The notes: a model not told the origin generated them from the letters alone. Shown: positions 43,440-64,000, counted from the stretch's first letter. The stretch: 64,000 nt of DNA from Schmidtea polychroa (GCA_044892525.1 CM097887.1:144376397-144440396), one strand, 5' to 3'. Translations and numbers: made by a program.

Positions 43440-44484
43440 TATTATTATTATTATAATTATTTTGATAATTTAATTTAATTTTGTTTAAATCAGATATTAT
43501 TTATTATTATGCAATAAATATAATATTAATTTATAAAAATTCTATAAAACGTGGAACCGTTGATACTTTTCGATTTTCATCAAGAAATAATATTCATTAA
43601 ATTCTATGTCATAATCAGAAATCTAAGGGGATTTGTGAAAACATCATTAATAATAAGAAATAGGAAGTCTTGTGTCAATGAAATAAATGCAGTGGTTGGT
43701 TTAGTTGATAAATGCTAGCGGAACCGAGTAGTCATTTTCCACATGCCTTGGTCGTCAAGTTGTTGCAAAATGCTCGTCCAAATCTAATCCGATGTGACAT
43801 GTTCCACATCGGTGAATGTGACAGAATCGTATTTGCAATATCACATATTCATTCTATACATTCGATTCTCGCTCGTACTTTCTGACAGTCAAGGAAACGA
43901 GAATTATTAAAATTATGCCTTTAAAAAAGACATTTTACCATTCACCATTCTGAGGAATTTCATTAAATTAAATTTCCTCTAAAATCTATAAAAATTTGTA
44001 ATTAATGTAAATTAATAAAAGGGGAATCTTCTAAAGACAATCATGAAAACGTTTTATAATAAAATATTTTATCCATTAATCTGAAATTTAAATGAACAAA
44101 ATATTCTTTGGTGACAATGATCTGCACTTTTGAACTTGGAAATATTTTATCAGGTCAAATGAGATCAGACAAATTAAAAATTATAATAAAAATATTTTTT
44201 GAATTTAAATTTTTAAATAATTTTTTAGAAAATGCTTACAATTATAAAGATGATGCTTGTTGTACAGTTTCATCCACGAGCAAACGATGCCGTTCGGCGT
44301 ACACGAATAATCAACTTGTGGAATTGGAAAAGGAATTTCATTACAATAATTATCTTGCAAGAGGAAGACGGACTGAATTATCGAAACAGTTACTCCTGAC
44401 AGAACGACAAGTCAAAATTTGGTTTCAAAATCGTCGTATGAAGCAAAAGAAAGAGAAAAAAGAAATTGAAAAATCACGAATTCA
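42069..44484 (+). CDS. Hox3-like homeobox gene (exon 1 from 42069 into a gap; exon 2 44229-44484; 3' end not seen)
   Basis: Exon 1 carries hexapeptide-like IYRWM; exon 2 follows a tttag acceptor and ends at a GTTAGT donor. Confidence 0.7.
43370..43455. repeat. (ATT)n microsatellite in the Hox intron
   Basis: Direct reading. Confidence 0.9.
44279..44458 (+). CDS. ANTP-class homeodomain, closest by eye to Hox3
   Basis: [60 protein letters not shown]; [13 protein letters not shown] is Hox3-like. Confidence 0.92.
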
Positions 44485-45619
44485 GTTAGTTGCCTTTATC
44501 TTTATTTTTATTTTGACATTGATATTGATTTTTAACAAAAATAAAACTATCAGTAAAATTTTTATTTTGAAAATGAAAATATAATTCTTACAAATTTGTT
44601 TATGCTTTCAAATACCAATATACTATTGCTATTTTGCTGTGAGATATAGGTCAAAGCCCCCCTAGAAATAGTAAGTCAATTTTATTTTTATACAATGGAA
44701 AAGAAATCATTGGTGANNNNNNNNNNNNNNNNNNNNNNNNNNNNNNNNNNNNNNNNNNNNNNNNNNNNNNNNNNNNNNNNNNNNNNNNNNNNNNNNNNNN
44801 NNNNNNNNNNNNNNNNNNNNNNNNNNNNNNNNNNNNNNNNNNNNNNNNNNNNNNNNNNNNNNNNNNNNNNNNNNNNNNNNNNNNNNNNNNNNNNNNNNNN
44901 NNNNNNNNNNNNNNNNNNNNNNNNNNNNNNNNNNNNNNNNNNNNNNNNNNNNNNNNNNNNNNNNNNNNNNNNNNNNNNNNNNNNNNNNNNNNNNNNNNTA
45001 TTTTAGTATAAACAGGCATATAACGAACCATTCAAATTCAGCAAAGAAGAAAAACTATTTCCTACCCATTCATATCCAAAGAAATACAATTTGTCATAGG
45101 CACGCGGAATTGAAATAAATTGCATCAAATTCATAAAATATTTCATTAATTGTATCTTATAATTTAAATATTTTAGATAACAGCAATGTTATCAAAATAA
45201 ATAGCAAAATGTTATCATTTATATTATAAAACACATTCAGAGGTAAAATTTTTAATTAAAAGTTCATTCAATTATAAATAAATAATAATTTAATAAAGAT
45301 ATATATTAAATAAGGTTTTATTAAAAAATATTCCGTGACAAACAAATTACAAATAAATTTAATAATCATAAACTTTATTTAAAATAATTAAAACTTTAAA
45401 TAGAAATGTATTTAGCACTCAAAGATTTAATAAAAATACAACCAATGATTAACAGTATAATCAGAGAAATAAAATATTTATATATTATTTATTAAATTAT
45501 ATTCTGACTCGTGTCTGTGTGCGCACACATTGTTCTTTTTGTTTGTTTGTGTGCTTCTTTTATGATATGTTCTGAAATTCGATCGATTTTCTTTTAATTA
45601 ATGCTTTGTGATCCCATTT

Positions 45620-47027: not shown

Positions 47028-50000
47028 TGTTGGGGTCACACCTCGGCTGACCATTCTACCATGTTGGCGGGTCTAAGGGTTGATTGTCCATCTCGAATAG
47101 AAGGTGCCACCGATTTGTCAACCTGGAGTGAAACCCCACATAACTTTCTTCCAACATAGTGCCCGTGAATCACTTCACGTTGGTACTGCACTATGCAGGC
47201 GAGACGCCAGCAAGCAGGTGAGCTTCTGCCTTAAAACTACTCCTTGCTGAGGCCTCGACTTCCCATTCACGACTGCCGATAGAAGGGCTTACGTCCATTT
47301 CCTTACACAACCACCTATCAGGATTCGCTGAATGCAAATTGGGAAATTCTCGCTAGATCTTGCGGGTCCTCTTCTCAACCCACTTAATTAAAGTCTAATT
47401 ATTCAGGAACGAAAACGTGTAAGACAACAAGATTTATTAATTTCAACGTTATGACACAAGGATTCAGCTGTACACTTTACTAATGTTTGTCGAAAGAAGA
47501 GAAGACATCATAATCAACATAGATCGGATCCTTGTTCCTCATCCTGACCGCCACTGGGGTTTTATTGTTTCTCCCATTCAGTGTCGGCGAATAATTCGTC
47601 GAGGTTGAAAAACTCGGAAGCGTTCTCTTCCCACCTTACGCCAGCGGCTGATATGATTCGCGCTGAGGGTCCCGTTGTTAGGTCGATGGACACGTGAGAG
47701 TTGCCACCGTTGGTTGAGTCCTCTATTGATGGGATGTTTGGCTTTGCAGTAGCGCGCTCGCGCTGTCTCTTCTTGCGCTCTGCACGAGAGAGTTGTTTGC
47801 GCTTGGGTTTGCTTGAAGATGCCCCTTGCAGAAGGGTGACTGATACAGATGGACTAGCAGTGGGGGGCTTACTGGTACCCGTGAGGACAACATCTGGACG
47901 CTTGGGGGACCATTCGGTTTCGACGCAGTCTCGGCACGGTCTCTTGAACGGTGGAGATGGATTCGAGGAAAGGTTGTGATGAGGCGGAAAGATGTCATCG
48001 GCCTCTCGGATGGGAATCTGCACGATTTTTCGGGTTGTAGCCGCCTGCACGTAAACCTTATGCAGTGCCTCGGATTGTTCTCTGATTAGACTTCTTTGGG
48101 CACGGCTCTCAGATATTAGCGCGTCCCGGCAATGCTCGCTACGATCGAGCTTCTTTTGGATCTCTTTCATCCGAGCGGGACTAAACCATGTCCCTTCCAG
48201 CTCGTCTATCTTCCTCTTGTAACGTCCAATCTGAGTTTGTAGGTCCTTTATCACCGTATTTTTATCCGCGCACGAGAAGCACGGCCGTAATGCTGATTTA
48301 GTGGTTGGTAGCATGCTTGCTATAAATAATACTAATGAAATGGAGAACATACGATTTTAGAATAAATTAGATACGACCCGCGTCCATTCGTGGATACTTG
48401 ACCGTCGAAAAGAAGGAAAACTTATTCTACAATCCGGTTTTACTACGGATCTTAGTTGTTAAAACAGTTTATTTAACCAAATGCCATCGGTTTGACGCAT
48501 GTTATTAACTTTGACTATCTATTGATCTAACTGTATGCATGAGGGACGTAATAATTGATAGGGTGTAAATATAATATTGGTGAAACAATATAATAATGCT
48601 TTAGTAGAGGGACATTATAGTATGCGACCAAACCTTGCTATATGTTATCTATTTTGATTTATTAAAAACAAATTACTATCGCTCTCAACATATTTTTGAT
48701 TCGAAATTTGTTATTGGAAGTGCACTTTTAATTCGGTAGTGAATGTGATTATCTATGTTGTCTACCATTGGTCTGAAAATATGTGATGAGTTTACCTCAG
48801 CCATTACTTTACCACCCTCATGGAAAATCCCATCGGTCATAACATATCCAAATTTACGGATACTGCTGTCGACTGGTTGATTACATTATCGACCTATTGT
48901 GAATGTCACGTGTCGCGACTACTATGTATGCTAGTCTGATATTCTGTGCTCTCACCACATGGATTCGTGTATGGCTACTATCTTATCTCACTCACTTGGT
49001 GTATGCCATTTTCACGGTGATTTTATCGATCCTGCTGTCGTATGATTTTCTCTGCACAGTGATTTATTTGAGTTATGATTTATGCTACCGCCAGTTCTCA
49101 TCGCGGAATTTTACCCTTATCAACTTGTGTGAATGATCACCATCGTTTGGAAATTTATTGGGTCTTTTCAGTGATCGTCGAGGGAATAATTCTACCAAAT
49201 ATTGGAGCATATTACTACTCTCGTCATTCTACTCGGATTTTCCTATTCAGATGTAATGCCGTCTCGATGAAACCTGTCCTTTTCTCTCAGGTTCAATAAT
49301 TTGGATATATACAGAGATGACCTGGCTCTTATTGTAGAAATAAATGTTATTAATTAAATTTGGTGATATTTTACCTGTTTATAATTTTTGAAATAACTAA
49401 GTCTATAAAAACTTTCTGATTATAATACTAGAGAGGTTTTCGTAGAATCTCGCATTTTATAGTTTCGAGTTAGTTAAAGTTTTTAGAATACTTTCGTAAC
49501 TTGACATACAATCTGGACAGGTTAGATGACATTGGGTCTATGATAACGGAATTTCATACGAATTTAGTTCTACTGAGTCCGGCAAATAGACGTTGTCGCA
49601 ATTAATTTGATAAAACCATGTTTCCAGATGAAGTGTACTATGAGATGTTGTTATTTTTGACGAAGTTCACTAAATCGTGGTCTGGATCTCTTTTTTCAAT
49701 AGGGGTAAGACTTACGAAAACGACTTGACGAAAGAAGAATGCGACGCCCTCAATCACTGTGCAAATCCTTGAAAATCCCTTCATTCGTATGACTATCTTT
49801 GTGAAATCATTGTCTACCGGTTATTTTTTATCCATACCCCATTGTGATAATTTAGTCGCATCTTCAGCGATAGGACCCGTGAAGAAGCCTTCACATTTCG
49901 GCCCAATCTAGCTGCGCGATTGAAATACCCCATGTCCACCGGCTGAGCTCCCGAAGGCACCTCATACCATGACATGGAGTATCTCAACTCCACGTTACTC

Positions 50001-50235
50001 GTTAAATGAAAATTCATAAAATCTTTAATTCAAATAAAATACGGACATCTGGATAAAAACATTTTATTGATTCTGAAATACTTAAATAATACAAATTCCA
50101 TCAATACGTTAAAGTTATTAAAATGGAGAATCAAATGAAGAGAGTTAAAAATGTTTAATCGTTAATATTTAACATTATTATTAGCTTTGCAAATACTTAA
50201 ATAAATCTATAAACAAATGAAATACCCCTTACTAT
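47028..50235 (-). mobile_element. LTR-like/GC-richer block: either the distal part of a 3.8-kb LTR or a separate older element
   Basis: Sharp compositional edge at 47028 (minus-strand end CCCCAACA); AATAAA on minus near 47435; contains ORF 47562-48350 and decayed coding-like sequence. Confidence 0.4.
47562..48350 (-). CDS. Unknown protein (about 250-262 aa): CxxC, coiled coil, Pro/Ser-rich region, basic NLS-like stretch
   Basis: Intact ORF followed by a poly(A) signal about 125 nt downstream; PCFSC, PCRDC, KPKRKQLSRAERKKRQRER. Confidence 0.5.
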   Translation of the reverse strand: MFSISLVLFIASMLPTTKSALRPCFSCADKNTVIKDLQTQIGRYKRKIDELEGTWFSPARMKEIQKKLDRSEHCRDALISESRAQRSLIREQSEALHKVYVQAATTRKIVQIPIREADDIFPPHHNLSSNPSPPFKRPCRDCVETEWSPKRPDVVLTGTSKPPTASPSVSVTLLQGASSSKPKRKQLSRAERKKRQRERATAKPNIPSIEDSTNGGNSHVSIDLTTGPSARIISAAGVRWEENASEFFNLDELFADTEWEKQ

Positions 50236-50864
50236 TGTTAGGCTGAGTCAAAATTCAATGTTGTTCGTTCCAAATAGTTCTAATGGTGGTCCGTTGGATG
50301 TCGATTATTGTGATGAATGGTATTTCGGTCTCTGAACTGGTTTTGAATAGTTGTGGAGTTTTCTGAATGACGGTTGCTTGGCTAGTAGTGTCGATCCTAT
50401 GAAATGCTCGGGGTTAACAGTAAAAACAGTAAACATTTTTCTTACCTATGAAATGCTCGGGGTTAACAGTAAATTTAATGTTTTTGGTAGTTGTATATAT
50501 ATCAAATTCTTATTTGTGCGGACCAATCAGAGTTGAGTACCGCTTATTTCTATTAATTTAATATAATTTTCTTGTTTTTAGGTTGTTTTTTCCTTATTTT
50601 CTTTATTTTTAATATGTTTTTCTATTTATTTCCTTAATTTCCTTATTATTTCTTGAATTCCTCTTTATTTATTTGTCCACTTGTTCTATTTTAATCTTTT
50701 CTTAATTTTATTTTTTGTTTTAATTCTTATGTCTTAATTATTATTTTCCTTATATCTTATTCTATTTTATTTCTGATTTTATTTATTTTATTATTATTTT
50801 TCTTAATGTTCTACTTCCCTACTTTCCTATTTTTCAACGATTAAATTTTCGACTCAGCCCAACA
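50236..50864 (-). repeat. Candidate 3' LTR (629 bp) of the giant element
   Basis: Minus strand TGTTGGGCTGAGTC...GACTCAGCCTAACA; about 30-bp imperfect inverted ends; CCAAT then TATATATA near 50500-50530; 29-bp direct repeat at 50396-50424 and 50445-50473. Confidence 0.55.
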
Positions 50865-50900: not shown

Positions 50901-51090
50901 TTGCATAATTAACTTAATTCATTCATTCAAAAAAAAATATAACACGAACACTGAAAATTATACAACAATGATAAAAATTTTATTGTAAGATCAAGGTCAA
51001 AGCAAGACCAAGCAAGTATCACTTAAGGTGATAGTTGGTACATACAATAAAAGTTTCCACATATAATAACACAAATGTTTGAATTAGAGT

Positions 51091-51759
51091 TTATGAATTG
51101 TTAACCATTGATGCTTCTGCTGGCGGCTGTTGGTTGGTTTGGGTATTGATGTTGAGATAGGTCTGACTATTAGATTTCGGCTGGATTGGTTGATTACTCG
51201 GGGTTCGAGGTCGGAATGGGGTTGGGTTAAGATTTGTCAGGGGCACTTCTTGAGGATTTTGGTTCGAGGTTACTCTTATTGATGTCGAGATTCTACATCT
51301 ATTTCGAACTTCGTAAATTTTCATGAATATTGGTAGACATAGGAGGAGGGTTTCTGCGATCACCACATATATGAGATAATGGGCGTTATTGATTTCGGGA
51401 GGTATTTTTGGCTTTTCTACCAGATTTCCAAAATTCTCTTGTTGCATTTGTTGTTCCAACTGGTCGAATTGTTGAATTTGTTCGAGGATTTGTTTGTTTA
51501 TCATTTTACAAATGGGATTCTTTTTACACATTGTTTGGATGTTGTTGATGTGTGATCGGGTTGATTGAATGGTTTGGATGATATGGGTTTTTACGGTCAT
51601 CGGGTATGTGCATTGACTGGATTCTTGTTTAGGTTCTTGATTTTGATTTCGGTAATCTCGTACGATTTTCGGTTGGGCGTCTATTTGTTTGCTCTCCATC
51701 AGAATCATCAATACCATCATTGTTATCATCATCTCGCCTCGCATGATACTATTATACAT
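51091..51759 (-). CDS. Predicted type I membrane protein (signal peptide, 3-Cys ectodomain, TM, Pro/Gln/Asn-rich tail)
   Basis: MMITMMVLMILMESKQIDAQ; TM YLIYVVIAETLLLCLPIFM. Confidence 0.7.
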   Translation of the reverse strand: MYNSIMRGEMMITMMVLMILMESKQIDAQPKIVRDYRNQNQEPKQESSQCTYPMTVKTHIIQTIQSTRSHINNIQTMCKKNPICKMINKQILEQIQQFDQLEQQMQQENFGNLVEKPKIPPEINNAHYLIYVVIAETLLLCLPIFMKIYEVRNRCRISTSIRVTSNQNPQEVPLTNLNPTPFRPRTPSNQPIQPKSNSQTYLNINTQTNQQPPAEASMVNNS

Positions 51760-51799
51760 TCATTATGTTTATTTACAATTGGTTTTAATGACCCTTAAT

Positions 51800-52552
51800 T
51801 TAATGGTTCTGATTTGGATTATTTTCGCCGATTCTCATCAAGGTGGACTCTGCTTTAATTACCCTGTGTCTTAACTCGGGCAGCATTTCCAATTGTCGGT
51901 CTTTTTCACGGGCTTCTCTCTTTAGATGTCTAATTTCTTTTTCTAAGCGTCTAATTTCTTCCCTTTTCTTTTCAAGGTTTCTTTTTAGCTCGATTTGTAG
52001 GAGATCTTGTTCGTTTTCTTGCAGGTAATTTTGTTGTTGATGTTTTCTTTCTATTTCTCTATATTTGCGGACCCACTTCCTCATTTCTTTACTTTCCCGT
52101 TGGTTTTCTTCTAGTTGTCGTTTTAATTTATTTATAGCTGTTTGGCGCTCCTCCGCCTCAGTTTTCCAGTAGTCTTGGATTACCTCCTTTGCTTTGAAGC
52201 TTGCCCTCTCTTTCCATAGTTCTTCCGCTATCTTTTCCCAGTTTTTCCCTCGCTTCCTTTGTTCGTGTAGCCATTCATTTTCCTCTTCCGTTTCTCTTTT
52301 TATTTCCCCCAACGCTTCGCACTCTTTCTTTAACACCTTTATCATTTTCCGGTCCTCTAGGTATTTGTTTATTAATCTCCCGTTTTCGTATTTCTCTTCC
52401 CGTAACTCGGCCTTTAGCGTTTGTGTTTCTGTTGTTTCTGCCTCAATCTCTCCCTCTTCTACGTCGCTCATAATTTCTATCATTTCCTCGATTTTCATAT
52501 CTATAATATGTACAGTTAATGGTGCGCTATAGTGCGACTTATACGTATACAT
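51800..52552 (-). CDS. Coiled-coil protein (250 aa)
   Basis: E/K/R/Q-rich heptad pattern over most of its length; intact. Confidence 0.7.
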   Translation of the reverse strand: MYTYKSHYSAPLTVHIIDMKIEEMIEIMSDVEEGEIEAETTETQTLKAELREEKYENGRLINKYLEDRKMIKVLKKECEALGEIKRETEEENEWLHEQRKRGKNWEKIAEELWKERASFKAKEVIQDYWKTEAEERQTAINKLKRQLEENQRESKEMRKWVRKYREIERKHQQQNYLQENEQDLLQIELKRNLEKKREEIRRLEKEIRHLKREAREKDRQLEMLPELRHRVIKAESTLMRIGENNPNQNH

Positions 52553-52676
52553 TGATATAAAATTTAATAGTTTGGGTTACAGTCCCTTGAATACTTTTAC
52601 AATACTTTAAATTTTTTTTTTTTTTTTGTTTGGGATATACGTCCCGGTTTTTAGTTTTTCATCTTTTCATCCACCC

Positions 52677-53786
52677 TTATACGAAGGTTTCCTCCTGGCC
52701 TACATAACCTTCATCACTATCGACCGCGGAATGTAACTGTATCGCAATAGGGTCGTATGGTAGGTAATATTGGGGAATTTGAGCTCTCAATTCACTAACT
52801 TCGTCTCTTAGAGCTCGAGTGATGTTCAATTCCTCGTCGAGCAGATAGGTGAGATACCTTGTCTCTTCATCTTTCGCCTCTATCTGTTTGTCTAGGGCCT
52901 TGATTTTCTCGTCGCCCTTCCATTTTTCAATTTCTATTTCTAAGTTTTTAATATTTTCGATGTACATTTTCCTTTCGTTTTCTAATTTTCTGTTTTTTCC
53001 CGCTAGGACCATGTTTCTTTGTTCCAGCGATCCTTGTAATCCATTAAGGTCTCTTTTCATCTCTTCTACCTGATTTACTAATTCCACAACCCGTCCCGCT
53101 TGTTGGGTTATCATCTCTTCCATTGCGGCATTCTCGTGCTCTCTTATGTCGCACTTCATTGCCAAATGTCGCTCAAACTCCATAGCCTTTGTTTGCCAGG
53201 TTTGGCTTCGGGCGGCGACCTTTCTCAACCTTTTCAATTCTTCCTTTATTATTAAATTCTCCTCCCATTTACCTTGTTCGCTTTCATATCCGAGTCTCAT
53301 GGGCAATTCTTTCATCTCTTTTTTCATTTCTCTGTTTTGTCTTTTCCATTTTCTCGCTTCTGCCACTAAGTGCATCATTTTCCTGTCTTCTATTTGTTTT
53401 TCCGCTTCGCGCTTGGTGTTCTCATCGGTAAGTCTTTTTCTCGCTTCCTGCACTAGCTGCTTTAAGTAGTGGCTGTGTGCTTCTTGGCGGGTATTTTCTA
53501 GTGACGCCCATTTTGATGCTCTTTTGCATGCTTCTGCTTCCGCTCTTAAGTTGTGTATTAACCATTGGTATTGACTATTCTCATCTTCTCTAGTTTCTTC
53601 GATGTGATTTCGGGTGAGATTAGTTAGTTGGAACATTACTTTGTTCCATTTTTTATTATGTTCTCGGGGAATTTGTGTCTTGTTGACATTGGTTGGGGCT
53701 ATCGCAGTTTCGGTTATTTTCTCTTGTGTCATCTCTAAATCATAGACATCGATTAATCTTTTTATTATGAAAAGGAATTTATTCAT
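52677..53786 (-). CDS. Long coiled-coil protein (369 aa)
   Basis: Extended heptads with a non-coiled C-terminal tail; intact. Confidence 0.75.
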   Translation of the reverse strand: MNKFLFIIKRLIDVYDLEMTQEKITETAIAPTNVNKTQIPREHNKKWNKVMFQLTNLTRNHIEETREDENSQYQWLIHNLRAEAEACKRASKWASLENTRQEAHSHYLKQLVQEARKRLTDENTKREAEKQIEDRKMMHLVAEARKWKRQNREMKKEMKELPMRLGYESEQGKWEENLIIKEELKRLRKVAARSQTWQTKAMEFERHLAMKCDIREHENAAMEEMITQQAGRVVELVNQVEEMKRDLNGLQGSLEQRNMVLAGKNRKLENERKMYIENIKNLEIEIEKWKGDEKIKALDKQIEAKDEETRYLTYLLDEELNITRALRDEVSELRAQIPQYYLPYDPIAIQLHSAVDSDEGYVGQEETFV

Positions 53787-53924
53787 TATTTACTGTTTCT
53801 TGGGAAATTTTCGCATCATTTTTGGGTTTTCGTATTTAGGGTTTTCATACTATTATTATATAATATTTTATTGGTTATATACACCGATATATACAGATTA
53901 TTATATACAACATTATTCGATTGG

Positions 53925-55313
53925 TTACTCCGTTCTACCCTTCTCCTCTTTCCTCACGGTCATCTTGATATATATGGTATCATTTCTCGCCATATCTTCT
54001 ACTCTTTGTTGTGAGATGAACGTAGGTGCTCCTGTTGCTGATCCTTCTTCGTTGAGGGGCCTCTGGTAAGCTATTTGATTCCCCGTTGTTTTGAAGCTTT
54101 GCTCATGTATACTTTGGTTGTTCATCAGAGTAATATCGATTTTTGCCTGGAACGGCCATTCTAATATTTCGTCGTATTCTCCTTTACATAACAGAAAGAA
54201 AATCGAAAAGTGCGTATCCAATCCGGTTCCGTCCCCGTTGGGATATACCTTCATTTTCATTTTGTACCCATTTTTCCAAGAATGGAATGTAGGACTTGTT
54301 ATTCTTGTCTCTTCTCCGGTTTTTGCTTTTCGTATTCTTTCTTTTACTCCCGTTATTTTCCATATGTAGGGTGCTGTTGGGGTTATCTCATTTAGATTTA
54401 TTTCCCGTATTTTCTGATGTAGCTCCTTGGCCTGATTATTACTGATTTCTGTTCGGTTTATTTGCATCTTTATGTTTGCTCGGGCTTCTTCGAACGCTTC
54501 CCTTTCTTCTAGTAGTTCTTTGACTAACACTTTCAACGATGTTATCTCTATCTCCATTTGTTTTACTTTCTCTTCGCTTTCTTGTAGCGCAGTCGACCAC
54601 ATTTCTGCGTGAGTTGAAGCATTTTCTACTAAATGATGTGGTAACTCACCTCGGTGTAGTAGTTTCTGACAACCCCATCTACCTAGTACACATGTCATTC
54701 TTTTCTTTTCGCATTCCCTTAGATGCTGTGCCACCTTCATTATTTCCCCTTGGTTACATCCGTTTGGGCATTCCCCACTGAACTCCGCACATACTCTCTC
54801 CTCTTGGACATTGTGATGTTTGAGGGTGAGATTTATCCACGTATCTATTTCTCCACAGTGTTCACATCTTTCTAATCTCTCTTCACACTGCTTTTGATGT
54901 TCTTTTTCTTCGCTTGCTCGAATGGTTTTATGGCACCTTTCACACTGGCCAATTCTGTACATACATTCTCCCATATGTTGTACTACCTTCCATATTACTC
55001 CTTTCCATTCGCATGGGGCATTTTTGCATCCCAGGTTGGTGTTTAACATGTCTTTCACTGCGGCTTTATCCTCGTTAGTGTCTTCTAAACTCGATATTAG
55101 TGTCTCTTTACACACCGGGCACCTCTGTGGTCTATTCTTTATTGCTTCACTGATACATTCTTTACATACTCTGCATCCACATTGCGTTTGGTGAGGTTCC
55201 TTTAACAACTTTTCACATATTCCGCACATAACATGTTTGTGTATTCTGATCGTTGTAGATTTTCGGACTTGCTCGACAATCTCTCTGAACTCTTCTCTTT
55301 GTCGTTTATCCAT
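53925..55313 (-). CDS. Intronless TRAF-family protein (RING, zf-TRAF repeats, coiled coil, MATH)
   Basis: CGIC...CGCRVCKEC...CPVC; CKNAPCEWKG..HMGEC; YIWKI, SPTF...GYKMKMKVYPNGDGTGLDTHFSIFF, GEYDEILEWPF. Confidence 0.93.
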   Translation of the reverse strand: MDKRQREEFREIVEQVRKSTTIRIHKHVMCGICEKLLKEPHQTQCGCRVCKECISEAIKNRPQRCPVCKETLISSLEDTNEDKAAVKDMLNTNLGCKNAPCEWKGVIWKVVQHMGECMYRIGQCERCHKTIRASEEKEHQKQCEERLERCEHCGEIDTWINLTLKHHNVQEERVCAEFSGECPNGCNQGEIMKVAQHLRECEKKRMTCVLGRWGCQKLLHRGELPHHLVENASTHAEMWSTALQESEEKVKQMEIEITSLKVLVKELLEEREAFEEARANIKMQINRTEISNNQAKELHQKIREINLNEITPTAPYIWKITGVKERIRKAKTGEETRITSPTFHSWKNGYKMKMKVYPNGDGTGLDTHFSIFFLLCKGEYDEILEWPFQAKIDITLMNNQSIHEQSFKTTGNQIAYQRPLNEEGSATGAPTFISQQRVEDMARNDTIYIKMTVRKEEKGRTE

Positions 55314-55398
55314 TCTATAATTATATGTACAAATAGTTCTTATCGATACAGGTTCGATATTTTATTTACAATTATTTACATTTTAAGCTAGGTTTGGT

Positions 55399-55782
55399 TT
55401 AGGGTTCGGAAGAGTCGGCTTCGTGCCCGCTCTCCTCTCTATTCATTAGCCATTCCGACCAGTCTTCCATTTCTGTCTGTTCTGCTTCCTCCCTCATTCG
55501 GTCTATTTCAATTTCCTGTCGACGGCTATATTGGGTTATCCTCTCTATCTCTCTTTGCATTTGTTCGATTTTTAACCTCTGGTCTTCAATTATCTTCAAA
55601 TAACTAAATCCTCTGTTCATACTCTCGATCAGGTTTCTGTGCATCGTCAGTCCTTGTTCTTGCAGATTGGACACTAATTGTGCTAATACGGCACATTGTT
55701 GCTTCCATAATTCTTCAGTTACTGTATTGTGGTTCATTTCGTTATTTCCTTGATCCATTCCTAATTTATATACACTTTTCAA
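55399..55782 (-). CDS. Small coiled-coil protein (about 120 aa)
   Basis: Intact ORF between the polyprotein and TRAF; heptad pattern and acidic tail. Confidence 0.6.
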   Translation of the reverse strand: MKSVYKLGMDQGNNEMNHNTVTEELWKQQCAVLAQLVSNLQEQGLTMHRNLIESMNRGFSYLKIIEDQRLKIEQMQREIERITQYSRRQEIEIDRMREEAEQTEMEDWSEWLMNREESGHEADSSEP

Positions 55783-55918
55783 CTCTTATGTAAATTTAAT
55801 TTTATTTTATGATTCCCGTTATTGTATAATATTGATACCGCGCTTATATAGAGATATAGTACTGTTATATACATAAGATATACTTACTTTTTACAATTAT
55901 ATACAGTCATATTCCTTT

Positions 55919-58900
55919 CTATATACGTGAGTTTGGAGGGCGCTGAACGTTCCAGGCCTCCACCCACTGTCCTTGTTTGATATCACTTGGTCGTTTCACT
56001 CGATGTTGGAAGTTTCTGATTCGGGTCATTTCTAGTTCTCCGCGATGTCGTTTATCTTTAATTATTTTTATTGTTCCCCCCGTTATGATTAGGAATGCCC
56101 CTGTTATTATTATCCCACTGATCCACATCATCTGCTTCACGCTTATACTCTCTGGTTTTTCCTTGTTTGTTAATGTTGATATCGCTTCTGTACTTTTCTC
56201 GTTTCCTCTTTTGCCATTTCCTTTCATCATTTCCCGTATTCTTGCTATTTCCTCGTTCATACCCTCCTTTGCCATCTTTTGTATTTTTTCCATCTCTTCC
56301 TCCGAAACATAGTTGTCCTGAGCTTCCTCACCAGTTTTCTTGTGCTTTCCTCCTTCGTTCTTTTCGTCGTGGTTTTTTCTTTTCTTTCCTCTTTTCCCCG
56401 GGTATCGTCGGCATTCTCTTTTTGATTCAATCCTCCAGATACAAACCGTGTATTCTTTCGGCGGCTGCTGCTGCGTCACATATTGATGGCATCTCTCACC
56501 TGGTCCTAATCTTGAAATACAGACTTTGTGCTCTTTTCTAGGTTGGATCTGCGTTATTACTACTTCACCACCTTTTCCTAGGTGTACCTCTTTTCCTTTG
56601 ACGTTCGTTATTCTCTTCCCGTCTCGATTTCGGTATGCTTCTTGTATTCTTACTTCTGTTATTGGTTCTGTGTCCTCATTTATCAGTACTAGTTTCTGAT
56701 ACGCTCTAGACATGCATCTTCCTAGTATGCACCTTTCCTTTAAGTCCCATTCTTCCTTTAAATCCCACTGCTGCTCTTGTGCTTGCTTTCTCTTTTCTTG
56801 TTTTAGTTCATCCTCTTTGCTATCTTGATTCTCCGCTTCTTTGGTTTCTTTTATCGTTCTCGTCCCTCCCTGAGCTGTTACTAACTCTATCATGGTAAGC
56901 ATAATTATCATTAATATCATATTTGTCTCTATTTCTTTGTTAGTGAAAGGTAGGCATACCCTCTGTTTTCCATTATTCGATTTTTCCTCCTCTTTGGTCT
57001 TGGTTCTCGGGCTGTTTCCCTCTCTTTTCGTATCCGAATCCTTGTTTTCTGGTTTACCCTCCTCCGGTTCTCTTTTCTCTTTATCCTCCTTTCGGTCTTT
57101 TCCGTTATTGTCATCGTGTTTATCTCCCTCGCTGTCATTTAAAATGTCGTCCTCGACATTTATATCGTTCAATAATCTGCGATATGCTGTTAGCACTCTG
57201 TTTCTTGCTAATTTTGCTTCGAATTCAAACTCTTTTCTACCCGTTGCAGCATGTCTCTTTCTATTCCATTCTTTAACTAACTCTCTCAATTGCATACGAC
57301 GATGTTTGCCAATTCGTTGTTGCTCGTTCTGATTTTGCGTGAATTTTAGGTCTTCTCTATTTAATACTATTAAAATAATTTTAGGCGTCCCCCCCTTAGT
57401 TAGGGTATTCTTTACCATCGCATTTTCTCCGTTTTCGTAGAATTCGTTTACATTTATCGCATATTTATTATTTGGTGGTACTCTCCAGGTTAATAATAAT
57501 TTCATTGCTTCTAGATTTTTCCGTACCGTATTCCATTGAAACTGAGATGTGTTTTTGCACATATTTTCAACTTCTTCTTCTGTCGCATTTTTGCAAATAA
57601 ATCTGATCATTTCTAAGTTTGGCTGTATGGTTGCCCAGTCCAAGGTGGAATTTCCTTCATTGGACCTTTCGTCTAGTTTCGATCCTGATTGATGTAGGAT
57701 GTGGAGTGTTTTTGGGTGTATTTTCGTTATAGCTGCATACATCATGGCGGTTTCACCTTGTTCATTTTTCGTGTTGGTTTCCTCGCCCATCTCCCCAAGG
57801 ATTCTCATGATCGTTATTGCTCTATTCTCTTTTGCAGCTAGTATTGCTTGTTGTAGGGGTGTTCGGGAATCCTTCGTTACCATCGTAAATGCTCGAGGCA
57901 AGAAGGTTTTGATTTTCCCGATATCTAAACCCGTGGTTTGATCTCTTGCGTATGTGTGTACGGCTTTTATTATTTTGGACAATATTATTTCGTCTGGCAG
58001 CTCTAGCATTTCCTCAAAGAACACTTCTTTTGCTTTGCGTATTATTGCCTCTTGATCTATACTCATTGATTTGGTTTCGATGACGTTGTTTGTGACCGTT
58101 CGGTTCGTTGTTGACTTTGATTCCCTGGATTTCTCATACCTTATTTTCGTTTTCTTTCCGTTTGGATTATTGATTCGTTCCTCTGCTGTAAGTATTTGGA
58201 TAATATCCATGTAATTCTCGCGGATGTTATTCATCGTGTCCATCATATATAACACACTTACTGTTTCCCAATATTTATGTCGTACTTGGTTAGTAAATTG
58301 GAATAGTGATTTTTCGAATGTGTCGATTCGCTTTTTTGTTAACTGTTCGTCTTTGTGATTTGTGAATTTTATCCCTCGTTCTAGTAATTGATTCGGGATT
58401 TCGAATAAATGATGTCCTTTCATAGCTTCTCTCATCAGCGTGTTCTCCCCTCTCGTGAACGCTTCGTTTACGTTGATCATATAATCGTTTCGAATTGGAT
58501 TTCTCCATGTAATTAATATTCCGGTAATTGTCGTCAGTTTTTCTTTGATCGCTGTTAGCAATCCATCATACATGTTTCCGACTTCCCGATTGTCCTCATA
58601 TGATAGTAGTTCCATCAATGACGTGAACGCCTCGGTACTTCTCCCTCTGATAGCATGATGTAGAGCGTTTTTCCGCTCGTGGTCTTGTGTAGTTATTTTC
58701 GATCCGGTATCGAGTAATGCGGTTATAATGTCTTTTGTTTTGCCTCTGTTTGCGGCTATCATTAATGGTGTGTAACCTTGGTTGTTTGTTTGTTCTGTTG
58801 ATCGCTTGCAGTCGTGAAATGCTTCTATTGTTTCTAGTATTTGCTCGTTGTTACCTACTTTCATGAGTTTGTGTAATGGTGTGTCTCCGTAATGATCTGT

Positions 58901-61900
58901 TATTGTAAATAATATTGGCCATTGGCTTTTGACTACTCGCAATAATGGGTGTGTCCTTTCTCTATTTGCATAGTTCTCGATCATCGTCAATAATCCTCCT
59001 AATATTTCGAAATCTAATCGATCTTTCGCCCATCCAGGTATTTTAATTTTTACCTCTTTTACAATCTTTTCCGCTTCTGATGGTTGGATACCTAATCGTC
59101 CAGTGATCGGTTCTGCGAGTTGTTGCATCATGTTCATTCGGTAGGTTTGCGAACGTGTGGTTAATGTACGGCCTTCTGGTTGACTAGTGGCTGTTTTTGG
59201 AATTGATTTGCATCGTGCCACGTTTACGTATATTGGTCTGGTAAAGGGGTTATTTACCAATTTCACTCTTACATTAGTTTCGCCTACGAATAAGATCTCA
59301 TATGGTCCTTTTCCGTTGCGTTGTAACTTTTTTGTGGTTCCTGGAATTAATTCCGGGGTTTCTATCATTACCCAATCCCCTGTTTGGAACGTATGTTGCT
59401 TCACGTTTTTCTTTCGATCGTGTAAATCTTTATAACTTTCCTGGTAGAACTTGATATTTAATCCCGCAGTTTCCCAAATTTCTTGCATTCTTTCCTTGAA
59501 TTTCGTAACATAATCATCGATCTCCATATACTGCGATATCGGTGGTTGGTATTCCAGGTCCATTGGCATATTACATTCTCTTCCGTACATTAATTTGAAT
59601 GGGCTCATTTTCGTTGATGCGTGAATCGACATTCTGTACGCCATAAGACATAGGTTTATATATTCGTCCCAATCTCGTTGGTGACGGTCAACGTAGTTTG
59701 ATAACATTTGTATAAGTGTTCCATTAAATCTTTCCGTCATCCCATTGGTTTGAGGGTGGTATGGAGATGTTCTTAGTTTTGCTATTTTGAAGTAATTTGT
59801 TACTTCGCTCATTATCTCACTCATAAAATTTGTTCCCTGATCGGTTAAGATTTGTTTTGGTGTTCCATATCGGCAACATATCTCTTCTACCAAAATTTTT
59901 GCGATTGTTTTAGCTTTTTGGTCTGGCATCGCGAATGCTTCTGGGAATTTCGTAAGAAAGTCTGTGATCACTAGAATGTAAACGTTTCCTTTATCTGACT
60001 CTGGTAGTGGACCAACTACGTCCATGGATATCATTGTCATTGGTTCTATTGGTACTGGCATTGGCGTTAAAGGTGCTTTCCATTTCGATCCCGTATTCTT
60101 CCTGGTTGCACAAGTTAGACAATTTTTTACCCATTCGGTTACATCTTCCGTTAACGTAGGCCAAAAATATTTCTGTTTCATTCTTGCTAACGTCTTTTTC
60201 GATGACATATGTCCTCCCAATCTCCCATCGTGATATTGCGTTAGTAACTCTTTTCGTCGGTTTTCCGGTATACACATTAATCGTTTTTCCCCATCCATTA
60301 TCAGCAACCAATCTTTCTCTATAATATATCGGTGTCGGTGTTTATCCATATGTTCTTTTAATTTTTGGTCTTTCGCATATACATCTGTCTGTCCGGTTTT
60401 TATATAATCGATAATTTGTTTTAATTCCGCGTCCTCTTGTTGGTCCTTTCGCAATTGACAGAAATCCAAATCTTCCGCTACTATTAAGCATATGCGTTGC
60501 ATTTCTGAATCCACCAAATCTGGGAAAATAAATCTTGACATACAATCGGCGTTGGCATTTGCTCTTCCCGCTTTAAATTTTATAAATGGGGAGTATTCTT
60601 GCAATTGCATGGCCCATCTCATCAGTCTACTGGACGCTTCTTTATGTTGCCCTAACCACACTAATGGTTGATGGTCTGTGGTTATGCATATCTCATGTCC
60701 CCATAGTAAATATCGGAAGTGTTTGATAGCTTGTATTATAGCCAATGCTTCTCGTTCTGTTACCGAATAGTTCTTTTCGTGCTTTTTGAATGTTCGACTG
60801 TAATACCCGATTACTCTCTCTTTTCCCTCATCGTCCAATTGTCCCAGAATCGCGCCTGCCGCGTACCCGCTTGCATCCGTTGCCAATAGAAATGGCTTCT
60901 TAAAATCTGGGTGTACGAGGATAGGTGCTTCGATTAGTTTGTCTCTCAGCGTTTCAAACGCCTCTTGTTGTTCCTTCCCCCATAAGAACGAAATGTCCTT
61001 CTTTACTAGTTCCTGGATTGGTTTTGCAATTCCTGCATAATTTTTGATAAATTTGCGATAGTATCCGCATAATCCTAGAAATTCCTGAACTTGGGTGACA
61101 GTTTTCGGTGCTGGACATAGTTTTATTTTCTCAATGTTTCTTGGATCTGGCTCCTTTCCTTTAGCTGACACTATGTGTCCTAAAAACGTGACTTTTTCCT
61201 TTGCCCAATCGCATTTTGATGGTTTGAGTTTGAGTTTCCACTGTCTTAATCTAATAAATACGTTTCGGATATCTTCTAGATGTTGTTCAAATGTCGCTGA
61301 ATAGATTAGTAAATCATCAATATATACCATACATTGTTTGATTCCATGGGTGACAAAGTTCATACACCGTTGAAATGATGCTGGTGCGTTAGTCAGTCCA
61401 AATGGCATTTTCCTGAATTGATATAGATCTCGTCCCAACGTGAAAGCTGTTTTCTCTTTGTCCTCATCTTTGACTTTAATCTGCCAGTATCCACTTTTTA
61501 GATCTAAAGAAGTAAAATATGCTGCCCCTTGCAACATCAATAACATCTCATTGATGTCTGGCAATGGATAGGTATCTCTCTTGGTCACTGCGTTTAACTT
61601 CCGATAATCGATACAGAATCGTTGGGTGCCATCTTTCTTTTTCACCATGACCACTGGGAATTGCCAGGGTGAGCAACTTGGTTCGATTACTTTTGCGTCT
61701 AGCATCTTTTGTACTTCTGTTTCGGCTATTTCTTTCTGCATTTCTGCTAGCTTGTATGGTCTCAATGCAATTGGAGTTTCATCTATGAGGGGTATTGCAT
61801 GTAGGGTAACATCGCATGTACCCAAGTCTAAGTCTGAGATGGCGAATATATCTTTATATTCTACCAACAATCGGTGTAATTTTTTCTTTTCATCATTCGT

Positions 61901-64000
61901 CAACAACATACTATCTATTGTCCATAATTCATCATCTTTGATCATCTCGTTGGTCACTTTCGGTAATTCTATGTCCATCATTGGGGTCAATCTTCCCAAT
62001 TTTTCGTTCTCATAAATGATTTTGTCTTCCTCTTCGAAATTCGTGATGTTGAGCGGTATCACTCCTTCTTGGTTTATTGTGATTATTTCTCTTGCGAGTG
62101 GTAATTCTCGTCGCTTTTCGAATGACTTGCTTGGTTCAAAGATAACTTCTCCTTCCATACCCGTATCCACTTTTATCTGACAAATCATCTGCGATTTTGC
62201 TGGTACTATTATTTTTTCTGGACATCTGATGACTGCATTCATTTTGCATATTCTACCGGTTTTGTCTTTTAAACACATAGTTGTTAAGTCTATTACGACT
62301 TCTTTTAATAATTCTGGCATCAGGTCCGTTCCGATTATGCATGGTACGCTAAGTTTTGGTATTACTGCCAAATACGTTTCAATTTCGTTGTCCTGGTATC
62401 TCAATGTAGTCCACCATCTTCCGACCACGTCCACTGTTTCTTTACTACATGCTATGATGTGAATTGTTGTTGATTCGATATCCTTCCAGTGTTTACTGGG
62501 GATTTGATTAATCGCTATCGCTGATACATTAGCTCCGGTGTCTATCATAGCATTGGTTTCTTTACCATTGATTTGAATCATAACTGTTACTGCTGGACCT
62601 CCAGGTAAACTCATCGCTGCTATTGTTCTTACGTCATCTGCTTGATCTACACTTTTGGTACGTCGTGTTGGCATATAATGCATACCGGGTTGACTCGGTA
62701 ATTGCGGATACATATTTTGTGTCATGGTCAAAGCTGTTTGTGGTCCCACGATATCCGGTGGTATATAGCTTCCATTGGCGATCCAGGTGTTTGTCTTTTC
62801 CTTTTCCCAATATGGTGCCGTTTCCATTGGTTTTTCGTTTGGGTTTCTGTTTGGATAAAGACATTTATCGTTCCCGTTATCATCGTCGTCACTATCGCTG
62901 TTAGATGATTGGCTTCTAAATCGGTCCAAGAATTTTGGCTTATTCTTTTTCAATTGTCGTCTTGTTGCTTCATCGTACATTACTTTCCGGAATCGTCTGC
63001 CTACTTCCTCGTCGGTTCCTTTAATCTTTGTTAATATTTTAATCAATCGCTTTATCCGATGAATGTCTTTTGAGTGGCCATGTAATACCATGGTCTTAGC
63101 TAAAAATGGTAAGAAGCCTACTATCATTTTCCAATTAACTTTCTTTTCCCGCTTGTATATATCGAAACAAGCTAACATTTGTGTTAGTATTACTCTGACT
63201 ATCTGAATTATGAGTATGATCCCTAATATCCCGGCCATCATTTGTCCAAAAACTAAGAATCTTCCCCACATTGCTTTCATCATGTTTGACGTAGCTTGTT
63301 GAAAATGGTCTGGCGATAATAGCAGCTCGTAATTCGGGCCTGATTGATAGTTTGTGCCCCCAGTTATTGTTACCATATTAGACAAAATGGATTCTCGTCT
63401 GGCTGGGAAGAGTACGTTAAGTCGTGCTGTTTCTAGATCTTCTGGGGAATACATACCACCGTTTGACACGTCTATAGGTTTGAAATCCAGCTCTGTGGCG
63501 AGTTCTATTAATCCAAATTTCTTGGGCTCCTCGGATATGGTTTTTCCCGGTAACATCATCCATTTCCCATCGGGCCTTTCATATAAAGGTCCGTATGCAT
63601 TAGAACAGTTAAAGAGATTTGGGTAGAAACCCACTGGATTCATAATTCTAGTGACTGGTTGGACGAATCGATTTTGTCCTTTATAACGGATTTCTAATTC
63701 ATTTGCACATCTCTTTTCGGGTAGTATGGATTTTTCTGGCATTCGTGCATACGTCTTGGTACACTGGTATGTGTACATCACTTCTCCTACCATTCTACCA
63801 AAGTGTCCATCTGGTAATGGGAGTGATGGCATCGTGTTATCTGGGTGCGTTATCGCAATAGCTAGCTTTGTTTTCAATATTTCTTTATTCAATGAACAAT
63901 CGTTTTGTATTAGATCGTAATATACTTTTTGCAAGGTCGTTTGTCCGCGATGAAATAGAAAATCCATTTTATTATTTGCATATAAGTATAGTTTTACGTC
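55919..64000 (-). CDS. Polyprotein: gB/chuvirus-like glycoprotein C-half, TM, PR, RT, RNase H, IN, two ankyrin modules, membrane-anchored tail (5' end beyond window)
   Basis: Frame is open from 64000 (DVKLYLYANNK-MDFL...). TM about 63185-63260; DTG 62534-62542; YIDD about 61314-61325; TDAS/TDHQPL; HHCC, MDVVGP (60020), TDQG, TERFN; GPY about 59300; TPL ankyrin motifs 58888-57630. Confidence 0.95.
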   Translation of the reverse strand, partial: DVKLYLYANNKMDFLFHRGQTTLQKVYYDLIQNDCSLNKEILKTKLAIAITHPDNTMPSLPLPDGHFGRMVGEVMYTYQCTKTYARMPEKSILPEKRCANELEIRYKGQNRFVQPVTRIMNPVGFYPNLFNCSNAYGPLYERPDGKWMMLPGKTISEEPKKFGLIELATELDFKPIDVSNGGMYSPEDLETARLNVLFPARRESILSNMVTITGGTNYQSGPNYELLLSPDHFQQATSNMMKAMWGRFLVFGQMMAGILGIILIIQIVRVILTQMLACFDIYKREKKVNWKMIVGFLPFLAKTMVLHGHSKDIHRIKRLIKILTKIKGTDEEVGRRFRKVMYDEATRRQLKKNKPKFLDRFRSQSSNSDSDDDDNGNDKCLYPNRNPNEKPMETAPYWEKEKTNTWIANGSYIPPDIVGPQTALTMTQNMYPQLPSQPGMHYMPTRRTKSVDQADDVRTIAAMSLPGGPAVTVMIQINGKETNAMIDTGANVSAIAINQIPSKHWKDIESTTIHIIACSKETVDVVGRWWTTLRYQDNEIETYLAVIPKLSVPCIIGTDLMPELLKEVVIDLTTMCLKDKTGRICKMNAVIRCPEKIIVPAKSQMICQIKVDTGMEGEVIFEPSKSFEKRRELPLAREIITINQEGVIPLNITNFEEEDKIIYENEKLGRLTPMMDIELPKVTNEMIKDDELWTIDSMLLTNDEKKKLHRLLVEYKDIFAISDLDLGTCDVTLHAIPLIDETPIALRPYKLAEMQKEIAETEVQKMLDAKVIEPSCSPWQFPVVMVKKKDGTQRFCIDYRKLNAVTKRDTYPLPDINEMLLMLQGAAYFTSLDLKSGYWQIKVKDEDKEKTAFTLGRDLYQFRKMPFGLTNAPASFQRCMNFVTHGIKQCMVYIDDLLIYSATFEQHLEDIRNVFIRLRQWKLKLKPSKCDWAKEKVTFLGHIVSAKGKEPDPRNIEKIKLCPAPKTVTQVQEFLGLCGYYRKFIKNYAGIAKPIQELVKKDISFLWGKEQQEAFETLRDKLIEAPILVHPDFKKPFLLATDASGYAAGAILGQLDDEGKERVIGYYSRTFKKHEKNYSVTEREALAIIQAIKHFRYLLWGHEICITTDHQPLVWLGQHKEASSRLMRWAMQLQEYSPFIKFKAGRANANADCMSRFIFPDLVDSEMQRICLIVAEDLDFCQLRKDQQEDAELKQIIDYIKTGQTDVYAKDQKLKEHMDKHRHRYIIEKDWLLIMDGEKRLMCIPENRRKELLTQYHDGRLGGHMSSKKTLARMKQKYFWPTLTEDVTEWVKNCLTCATRKNTGSKWKAPLTPMPVPIEPMTMISMDVVGPLPESDKGNVYILVITDFLTKFPEAFAMPDQKAKTIAKILVEEICCRYGTPKQILTDQGTNFMSEIMSEVTNYFKIAKLRTSPYHPQTNGMTERFNGTLIQMLSNYVDRHQRDWDEYINLCLMAYRMSIHASTKMSPFKLMYGRECNMPMDLEYQPPISQYMEIDDYVTKFKERMQEIWETAGLNIKFYQESYKDLHDRKKNVKQHTFQTGDWVMIETPELIPGTTKKLQRNGKGPYEILFVGETNVRVKLVNNPFTRPIYVNVARCKSIPKTATSQPEGRTLTTRSQTYRMNMMQQLAEPITGRLGIQPSEAEKIVKEVKIKIPGWAKDRLDFEILGGLLTMIENYANRERTHPLLRVVKSQWPILFTITDHYGDTPLHKLMKVGNNEQILETIEAFHDCKRSTEQTNNQGYTPLMIAANRGKTKDIITALLDTGSKITTQDHERKNALHHAIRGRSTEAFTSLMELLSYEDNREVGNMYDGLLTAIKEKLTTITGILITWRNPIRNDYMINVNEAFTRGENTLMREAMKGHHLFEIPNQLLERGIKFTNHKDEQLTKKRIDTFEKSLFQFTNQVRHKYWETVSVLYMMDTMNNIRENYMDIIQILTAEERINNPNGKKTKIRYEKSRESKSTTNRTVTNNVIETKSMSIDQEAIIRKAKEVFFEEMLELPDEIILSKIIKAVHTYARDQTTGLDIGKIKTFLPRAFTMVTKDSRTPLQQAILAAKENRAITIMRILGEMGEETNTKNEQGETAMMYAAITKIHPKTLHILHQSGSKLDERSNEGNSTLDWATIQPNLEMIRFICKNATEEEVENMCKNTSQFQWNTVRKNLEAMKLLLTWRVPPNNKYAINVNEFYENGENAMVKNTLTKGGTPKIILIVLNREDLKFTQNQNEQQRIGKHRRMQLRELVKEWNRKRHAATGRKEFEFEAKLARNRVLTAYRRLLNDINVEDDILNDSEGDKHDDNNGKDRKEDKEKREPEEGKPENKDSDTKREGNSPRTKTKEEEKSNNGKQRVCLPFTNKEIETNMILMIIMLTMIELVTAQGGTRTIKETKEAENQDSKEDELKQEKRKQAQEQQWDLKEEWDLKERCILGRCMSRAYQKLVLINEDTEPITEVRIQEAYRNRDGKRITNVKGKEVHLGKGGEVVITQIQPRKEHKVCISRLGPGERCHQYVTQQQPPKEYTVCIWRIESKRECRRYPGKRGKKRKNHDEKNEGGKHKKTGEEAQDNYVSEEEMEKIQKMAKEGMNEEIARIREMMKGNGKRGNEKSTEAISTLTNKEKPESISVKQMMWISGIIITGAFLIITGGTIKIIKDKRHRGELEMTRIRNFQHRVKRPSDIKQGQWVEAWNVQRPPNSRI

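Follow-up and report, generated by a model that had tools for sequence, protein, structure and literature searches.

Results

Structure of the element

The window analysed here, a stretch of 64,000 nucleotides from Schmidtea polychroa, contains the 3′ part of an LTR retrotransposon on the minus strand. The element spans positions 47028-77034 (30,007 bp; coordinates are continued past 64000, the window edge). The 3′ LTR (47028..50864, minus strand) is 3,837 bp long, has TG...CA ends and harbors a 264-codon ORF (47562-48356), while the 5′ LTR is located at 73198-77034. The two LTRs differ by 1 mismatch over 3,837 bp and the element is flanked by a CTAC target-site duplication. The PBS (73173-73190, minus strand) is an 18/18 complement of host tRNA-Pro(TGG) plus CCA and lies 7 nt from the LTR; a classical polypurine tract was not evident in the element. 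A RING ORF of 168 aa (72370-72876) and a 74-bp tandem array (71080-71782) are also present. TG...CA LTRs, target duplication, tRNA PBS, the order PR-RT-RH-IN and a Ty3-like RT are the characters of Ty3/gypsy LTR retrotransposons (Metaviridae), and the element is a young copy of a Burro-type family of this group.

Several observations concern the surroundings. Genes for tRNA-Pro(TGG) matching the PBS form a long tandem array with 475-bp spacing from G000:C1:130901009 onward, and the tRNA-Pro(TGG) pattern has 2,212 matches genome-wide. An exon at 44096-44584 (plus strand), some 2.4 kb away from the end of the 3′ LTR, encodes a homeobox that its motif suggests to be of the Hox type. Beyond the 5′ LTR, at about 80600-86400, a decayed Polinton/Maverick-like cluster of short ORFs resembles polymerase, capsid, ATPase and integrase genes by eye.

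A single ORF encodes Gag, Env and Pol

As noted in a preliminary description of the window, a frame enters at the window edge without a stop; on the minus strand it runs from 64000 down to a stop at 55919 (2,693 codons), and this stretch (55919..64000) is part of a 4,617-aa ORF. The full frame measures 4,732 codons from stop to stop, the 4,617 aa being counted from the first ATG at 69772, 5.8 kb beyond the window edge, where the ORF starts with Gag. Its order is Gag–accessory–internal signal peptide–Env–TM–tail–PR–RT–RH–IN–ankyrin–second signal peptide–TM. The preliminary description had proposed an Env-Pol fusion. Env is indeed in frame with Pol, but Gag starts the same ORF, so the fusion is Gag-Env-Pol and not merely Env-Pol. 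The signal-peptide-like segment, Gag, PBS and 5′ LTR, which had been expected past 64000, were all found there.

Gag (68858-69772, minus strand) contains three CCHC knuckles and matched Retrotrans_gag (E 1.2e-9) and zf-CCHC. The accessory region between Gag and the signal (64988-68857, minus strand) carries PPKY at aa 1018. A Bcl-2-like part sits directly before the internal signal; Pfam matches to it were weak and confined to sister families B and D (E 0.023 and 0.0036), the window's own copy being without a Bcl-2 match in Pfam. The internal signal-peptide-like segment (64922-64987) ends with ATG/FTIYDC. Within the window, Pfam returned the order PF24664 Monjiviricetes_fusion, RVP, RVT_1, RT_RNaseH, Integrase_H2C2, rve and ankyrin, with no gag between Env and PR, as the preliminary description had it. 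Ahead of the aspartyl protease (62243..62617, minus strand; DTG 62534-62542) lies RTIAAM (62612-62629), a putative cleavage site. RT and RNase H are of the Ty3/gypsy type (Pfam; 60593..61645, minus strand; YIDD 61313-61324), and their best PDB match was Ty3 RT with E 3e-90, followed by the next family with 3e-60. Pfam also delineated the integrase (H2C2 plus rve; 59753..60271, minus strand) and two blocks of ankyrin repeats (57599..58849, minus strand; Ank_2 E 2e-17). A MATH domain had no Pfam match inside the 4,617-aa ORF, and a BIR domain was not found among the proteins scanned.

The end of the ORF (56060..56920, minus strand) encodes a second membrane protein, predicted from hydropathy and composed of a signal-peptide-like segment (56864-56920), a Cys-rich ectodomain and a TM (56060-56128). 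It gave no Pfam or Atlas match. A signal-like segment and a final TM after integrase are common to the window's family A, to families B, D and E and to the library proteins P0004, P0010 and P0017. Five accessory ORFs lie 3′ of the polyprotein (51091..55785, minus strand), namely a TRAF-like ORF with RING and MATH domains (Pfam; 478 aa, 53925-55361), a 128-aa ORF, two coiled-coil-like ORFs (370 and 258 aa) and a 222-aa ORF with hydrophobic segments, as judged by eye. Sister family E has counterparts of four of these ORFs.

Env is a predicted class III fusion glycoprotein

The preliminary description had placed a chuvirus/gB-like class III glycoprotein upstream of and in frame with PR-RT-RH-IN, and this reading was supported. 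Every motif quoted there was present: YANNK at 63982, CSLNKEIL at 63898, GEVMYTYQC at 63787, CANELEIRY at 63709, FVQPVTRI at 63667, GGMYSPEDL at 63460, LFPARRE at 63412, WGRFLVFGQMMAGILG at 63268, YPQL at 62710 and DTG at 62542. The C-terminal part of the ectodomain occupies 63269..64000 (minus strand); the whole ectodomain (aa 1618-2168) extends 921 bases beyond the window edge to 64921 and carries, beyond that edge, a furin-like REKR site in a low-confidence loop. PF24664 (Monjiviricetes_fusion) matched the full copy with E 9.6e-69 and the window part with E 1.5e-39. An AlphaFold model of Env reached a pLDDT of 90, and its top Foldseek matches were chu-related glycoproteins (E 1e-38, TM 0.72) and, among solved structures, herpes gB (E 1e-13, TM 0.45). 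When a profile of 100 Env sequences was compared with the PDB, all 35 matches were to herpes gB, weak at E 0.002-0.4; the single-sequence PDB search with Env returned 0 matches. In the Atlas, Env lay next to clusters of Monjiviricetes, gp64, rhabdovirus G and gB; its recognition score fell short of the guide value of that tool. Env is thus predicted to be a class III fusion glycoprotein of the chuvirus G/herpes gB type.

The Env tail runs into the protease

Signal peptides and topology were judged by hydropathy. A signal-peptide-like segment was located upstream of Env in 16 of 16 proteins. The Env transmembrane helix (63185..63241, minus strand) is followed by a predicted cytosolic tail or linker (62618..63184, minus strand), which contains a conserved amphipathic helix (63083-63127), an acidic stretch and YPQL (62699-62710). 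We take YPxL to be an ALIX-binding late motif, and such a role for the tail YPQL is putative. In 15 proteins, only one segment after the ectodomain scored as a TM, with dG values of -0.9 to 3.2 versus 3.7 to 9.6 for a second helix. The second hydrophobic helix, which is basic on both flanks in the window's copy, would place Pol in the lumen if it were a second TM, and was rejected on these dG values.

YP was present in 12 of 13 fused Env-PR linkers (shuffle mean 3.4), and 0 of 5,000 shuffles reached 12; the test covered 13 of the 15 proteins, P0005 and P0017 being left out for want of a protease motif match. Among stand-alone glycoproteins, 61 of 90 had YP in their last 70 aa, where 18.4 were expected. 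The fused linkers are otherwise mostly unalignable. Because YP was kept in fused linkers and in stand-alone tails far above shuffles, we read the Env-to-protease linker as the native tail of the viral glycoprotein. TM and tail showed 91% identity between families A and E, 86% of 28 four-fold sites being different, compared with 90% identity of RT; the constraint on TM and tail hence equals that on RT.

The gag-env-pol order is conserved in copies and relatives

The 75 Env copies that were scored were the best of 2,816 candidates and thus biased to young ones. Env was free of stops in all 75, 47 had the same 4,732-codon frame, and in 74 the frame stayed open past Env into Pol, its length of at least 2,900 codons implying that it passes the protease. 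A stop or frameshift between TM and PR, or an order peculiar to one copy, had been named in the preliminary description as grounds against the fusion, and neither describes these copies. Family E is 35 kb long and has a 4,791-codon ORF with MATH inside, resembling Burro1; it is 57% identical to the window's element over Env-Pol. Family B encodes 3,319 aa with 38% identity in Env, and copy C is a frameshifted relative of the gag-env-pol order. This order was common to sister families and library relatives.

A HMMER library search with Env retrieved 984 relatives, while word-indexed homolog searches gave no matches at near or longer lengths. From the 150 relatives listed among the 984, 21 were scanned for domains, picked mainly by length. 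Protease and/or RT followed Env in 10 of 14 top-group proteins; the other four were partial or without a Pfam match at that place. The open Env-to-PR frame was retained across proteins with 28-47% Env identity. Fused Envs formed one clade apart from stand-alone glycoproteins (FastTree support 0.999; 72 of 125 extractable sequences), a result partly expected, since each sequence in the tree had been picked as a match to the window's Env. P0010 (HBK71150.1), an Env-Pol polyprotein of the fused-Env clade labelled as a Flavobacteriaceae MAG protein, likely derives from a mis-binned animal contig. Two or three protease domains follow Env in P0004, P0006, P0007, P0011 and P0018.

Shorter elements were also encountered. 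Compact relatives of 17.5 kb (L029-L031) and 14.5 kb (L020-L022) keep the gag-env-pol order and have a different PBS; as they share the order, the layout does not depend on a giant element. A 13-kb relative (G000:C52, about 143670-156710; L023-L025) retains Gag, Env, PR and the second membrane protein, while RT, RNase H and integrase were removed by an in-frame deletion. The deletion junction was full-length in 10 of 40 scored matches, a recurrence that makes a non-autonomous family likely. The relative further carries a 486-aa ORF whose motifs resemble, by eye, those of a DEDDh exonuclease, with no such match in Pfam.

Processing signals and transcripts

A motif of the [IM]N[MVIL][ML] type, defined after the sequences concerned had been seen, was repeated in the Gag half and after IN (5 occurrences compared with 0.7 in shuffles), and a looser form occurs at the PR start. 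Such candidate cleavage motifs are found repeatedly in families A and E and are absent from family B, which had 1 and 0 matches. Slippery heptamers numbered 18, 8 and 14 in families A, E and B, and by eye none shared its position across the three. Contigs of five RNA runs, examined over 51000-64000 and the gag-env part, contained no splice-like joint, although contigs cannot show absence. Run X5 had four listed poly(A) ends in sense orientation, which were considered as evidence of a Gag-only mRNA and rejected, as they sit at A-rich tracts like products of internal priming. The same run contained one contig (about 91% identity) with an antisense poly(A) end at 62610, the protease start, a site that is not A-rich. 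Neither the slippery-site comparison nor the RNA contigs, with the limit just given, yielded a Gag-only route, and the one ORF is predicted to yield Gag, Env and Pol in a 1:1:1 ratio.

Discussion

A proposed membrane-threaded precursor

We consider it reasonably probable that the precursor threads its way across the ER membrane as flavivirus polyproteins do, which would leave Pol on the cytosolic tail of Env. After about 1,600 cytosolic residues the internal signal peptide would insert, and signal peptidase would cut between ATG and FTIYDC, with the Gag-accessory half staying anchored by the stub. The Env ectodomain would fold in the lumen, the single TM would stop transfer, and Env's own cytosolic tail would continue directly into PR-RT-RH-IN. 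No Gag-Pol link would survive, because signal peptidase would split Gag from Env and the tail runs straight into PR-RT-RH-IN. After integrase and ankyrin, the second signal peptide would export the second membrane protein. Gag and Pol would meet at one membrane face, where the element's protease would free the mature proteins and detach PR from the tail. In this scheme, Env and the membrane, not a Gag-Pol fusion, would bring about the packaging of Pol.

To judge from the sequence, signal peptidase likely separates Gag from Env, and Pol would then ride on Env's cytosolic tail until the protease cuts; we infer that Pol may be made as this tail, which fits the sequence. Because Gag lies in the same ORF, the Env signal peptide is predicted to anchor it in the membrane as well.

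Separate products from the one locus, with the single ORF as a genomic layout only, are an unlikely substitute for this threaded precursor. Splicing, early polyadenylation or recoding would give separate products, with Gag in excess, Env, and Gag-Pol or Pol, and the tether would matter little. Excess Gag is usually needed by LTR retroelements, and many AATAAA hexamers occur in the element. Moreover, foamy viruses make Pol from a spliced mRNA, according to the cited part of PMC7828637. However, the contigs examined, which cannot show absence, had no splice-like joint, the four sense poly(A) ends of X5 lie at A-rich tracts, and the Env-to-PR frame was kept open at 28-47% Env identity.

A threaded precursor from which the protease frees Pol early would preserve the topology and change the packaging. 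The protease could act in this way, and packaging might therefore depend on RNA or Gag contacts: Pol would bind genomic RNA or Gag in the manner of foamy viruses, and particles may be mostly intracellular. Families A and E have a putative cleavage site where PR starts, and P0004, P0006, P0007 and P0018 have two or three protease domains; both features agree with such a course, for which RNA-mediated packaging of Pol offers a precedent (PMC7828637, in the part cited). We nevertheless hold it to be distinctly unlikely, as the RT-level constraint on TM and tail and the stop-free fusogen in 75 of 75 copies fit a budding role. A copy-specific rearrangement, an assembly artefact or a segment that is not a fusogen is improbable in the extreme: no support for any of them was found in the copies, relatives and fold searches described above, the same 4,732-codon frame occurs in 47 of 75 copies and at least 2,900 codons are open in 74 of 75, sister families and library proteins have the order in common, and the fold searches returned chuvirus G and gB, so that the region upstream of the protease is fusogen-like, as PF24664 (E 9.6e-69) also indicates.

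Extending the membrane-threaded precursor to the whole group is more tentative. Gag-env-pol elements could, though we would not yet favour it, be enveloped retroviruses on a flavivirus-like plan, with signal peptidase splitting Gag and Env, Pol packaged as the Env cytosolic tail between two anchors and a variable second glycoprotein as attachment partner of a gB-like fusogen. If true, Pol packaging would have a third mode, beside Gag-Pol fusion and the RNA binding of foamy viruses. The element sharpens the question of how particles are made and Pol is packaged when env sits inside the only ORF. Its sequence predicts a cut at FTIYDC, an Env-TM-PR precursor and, following integrase, a second glycoprotein; should these predictions hold, planarians would have a retrovirus-like family, young and present in many copies, whose assembly is unlike that of orthoretroviruses and foamy viruses.

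Comparison with known systems

The preliminary description had suspected a known family with a perhaps undescribed architecture. The family is indeed of the Burro type, but the in-frame gag-env-pol architecture is already published for planarian Burro elements, and because of this the finding itself adds little. In the cited part of Arkhipova & Yushenova 2019 (PMC6431247), the Burro env lies between BCL2 and PR, matches mononegavirus fusion glycoproteins and is presented as the first example of an env sitting in frame between gag and pol. BURRO1 is derepressed in planarians under smedwi-2(RNAi) (PMC8532177, in the part cited). As far as the cited part of PMC6431247 describes Burro/GYPSM1, the window's element agrees with it in its length of about 30 kb, its long LTRs and its single huge ORF, in which Gag with three CCHC knuckles and a Bcl-2-like part come before an in-frame env, followed by PR-RT-RH-IN and ankyrin; TRAF/MATH cargo and a tandem repeat are likewise shared. 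It has the Burro characters of at least about 30 kb, an ORF above 4,500 aa, Gag with three CCHC knuckles and env between gag and pol, together with ankyrin, MATH and RING cargo by Pfam, Bcl-2 being only weak and in sister families. In contrast to Burro1, whose ORF1 of 4,873 aa has MATH inside (PMC6431247, same part), its 4,617-aa ORF is without MATH and TRAF is a separate downstream ORF. The element represents a Burro-type sister family distinct from Burro1, since it is family E, 57% identical over Env-Pol, that has the Burro1 layout; this sister family is possibly Burro-2/3/4.

Chary & Hayashi 2026 (PMC13524379), in the part cited, describe GAG-ENV-POL elements of the HSV/gB type, which occur in Nematoda, Bryozoa and Platyhelminthes and include six from S. 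mediterranea; they cite Sacco 2022 for the nematode elements and call the entry of gB-type elements unknown. Smed_errantivirus_1-6 share Ty3/gypsy Pol, gB-type Env, gag-env-pol order and a flatworm host with the window's element; by eye, the Env of family B closely matches the printed Smed_2 row, and Smed_5/6 resemble the window's Env. The IRTQAREC motif of the window's Env, however, had 0 matches in the supplements of that paper, and 'polyprotein', 'splic', 'single ORF' and 'frameshift' are absent from its main text. Neither Pol on the Env tail nor the second glycoprotein was found in the literature searched; Grohme 2018 and Sacco 2022, outside that scope, may describe processing or name the family.

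In Anakin, env follows pol. DUF5641 precedes Env in P0058, which fits this order. Anakin resembles the present elements in that an LTR element captured the same glycoprotein family, but differs by its BEL/Pao backbone (PMC10084718, PMC12440569 and PMC7642597, in the parts cited).

The proposed precursor also has counterparts among viruses, and the chain order is one of them: enzymes follow the envelope in the flavivirus polyprotein. The capsid of hepatitis C virus ends in the envelope signal peptide, and signal peptidase separates core and E1 (PMC5402940, in the part cited). In contrast to the present elements, hepatitis C virus and flaviviruses are unrelated RNA viruses with other fusogens, and their enzymes are not packaged. 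Foamy viruses share Pol packaging without a Gag-Pol fusion, whereas they make it from a spliced mRNA and package it through RNA instead of on Env, according to the cited part of PMC7828637.
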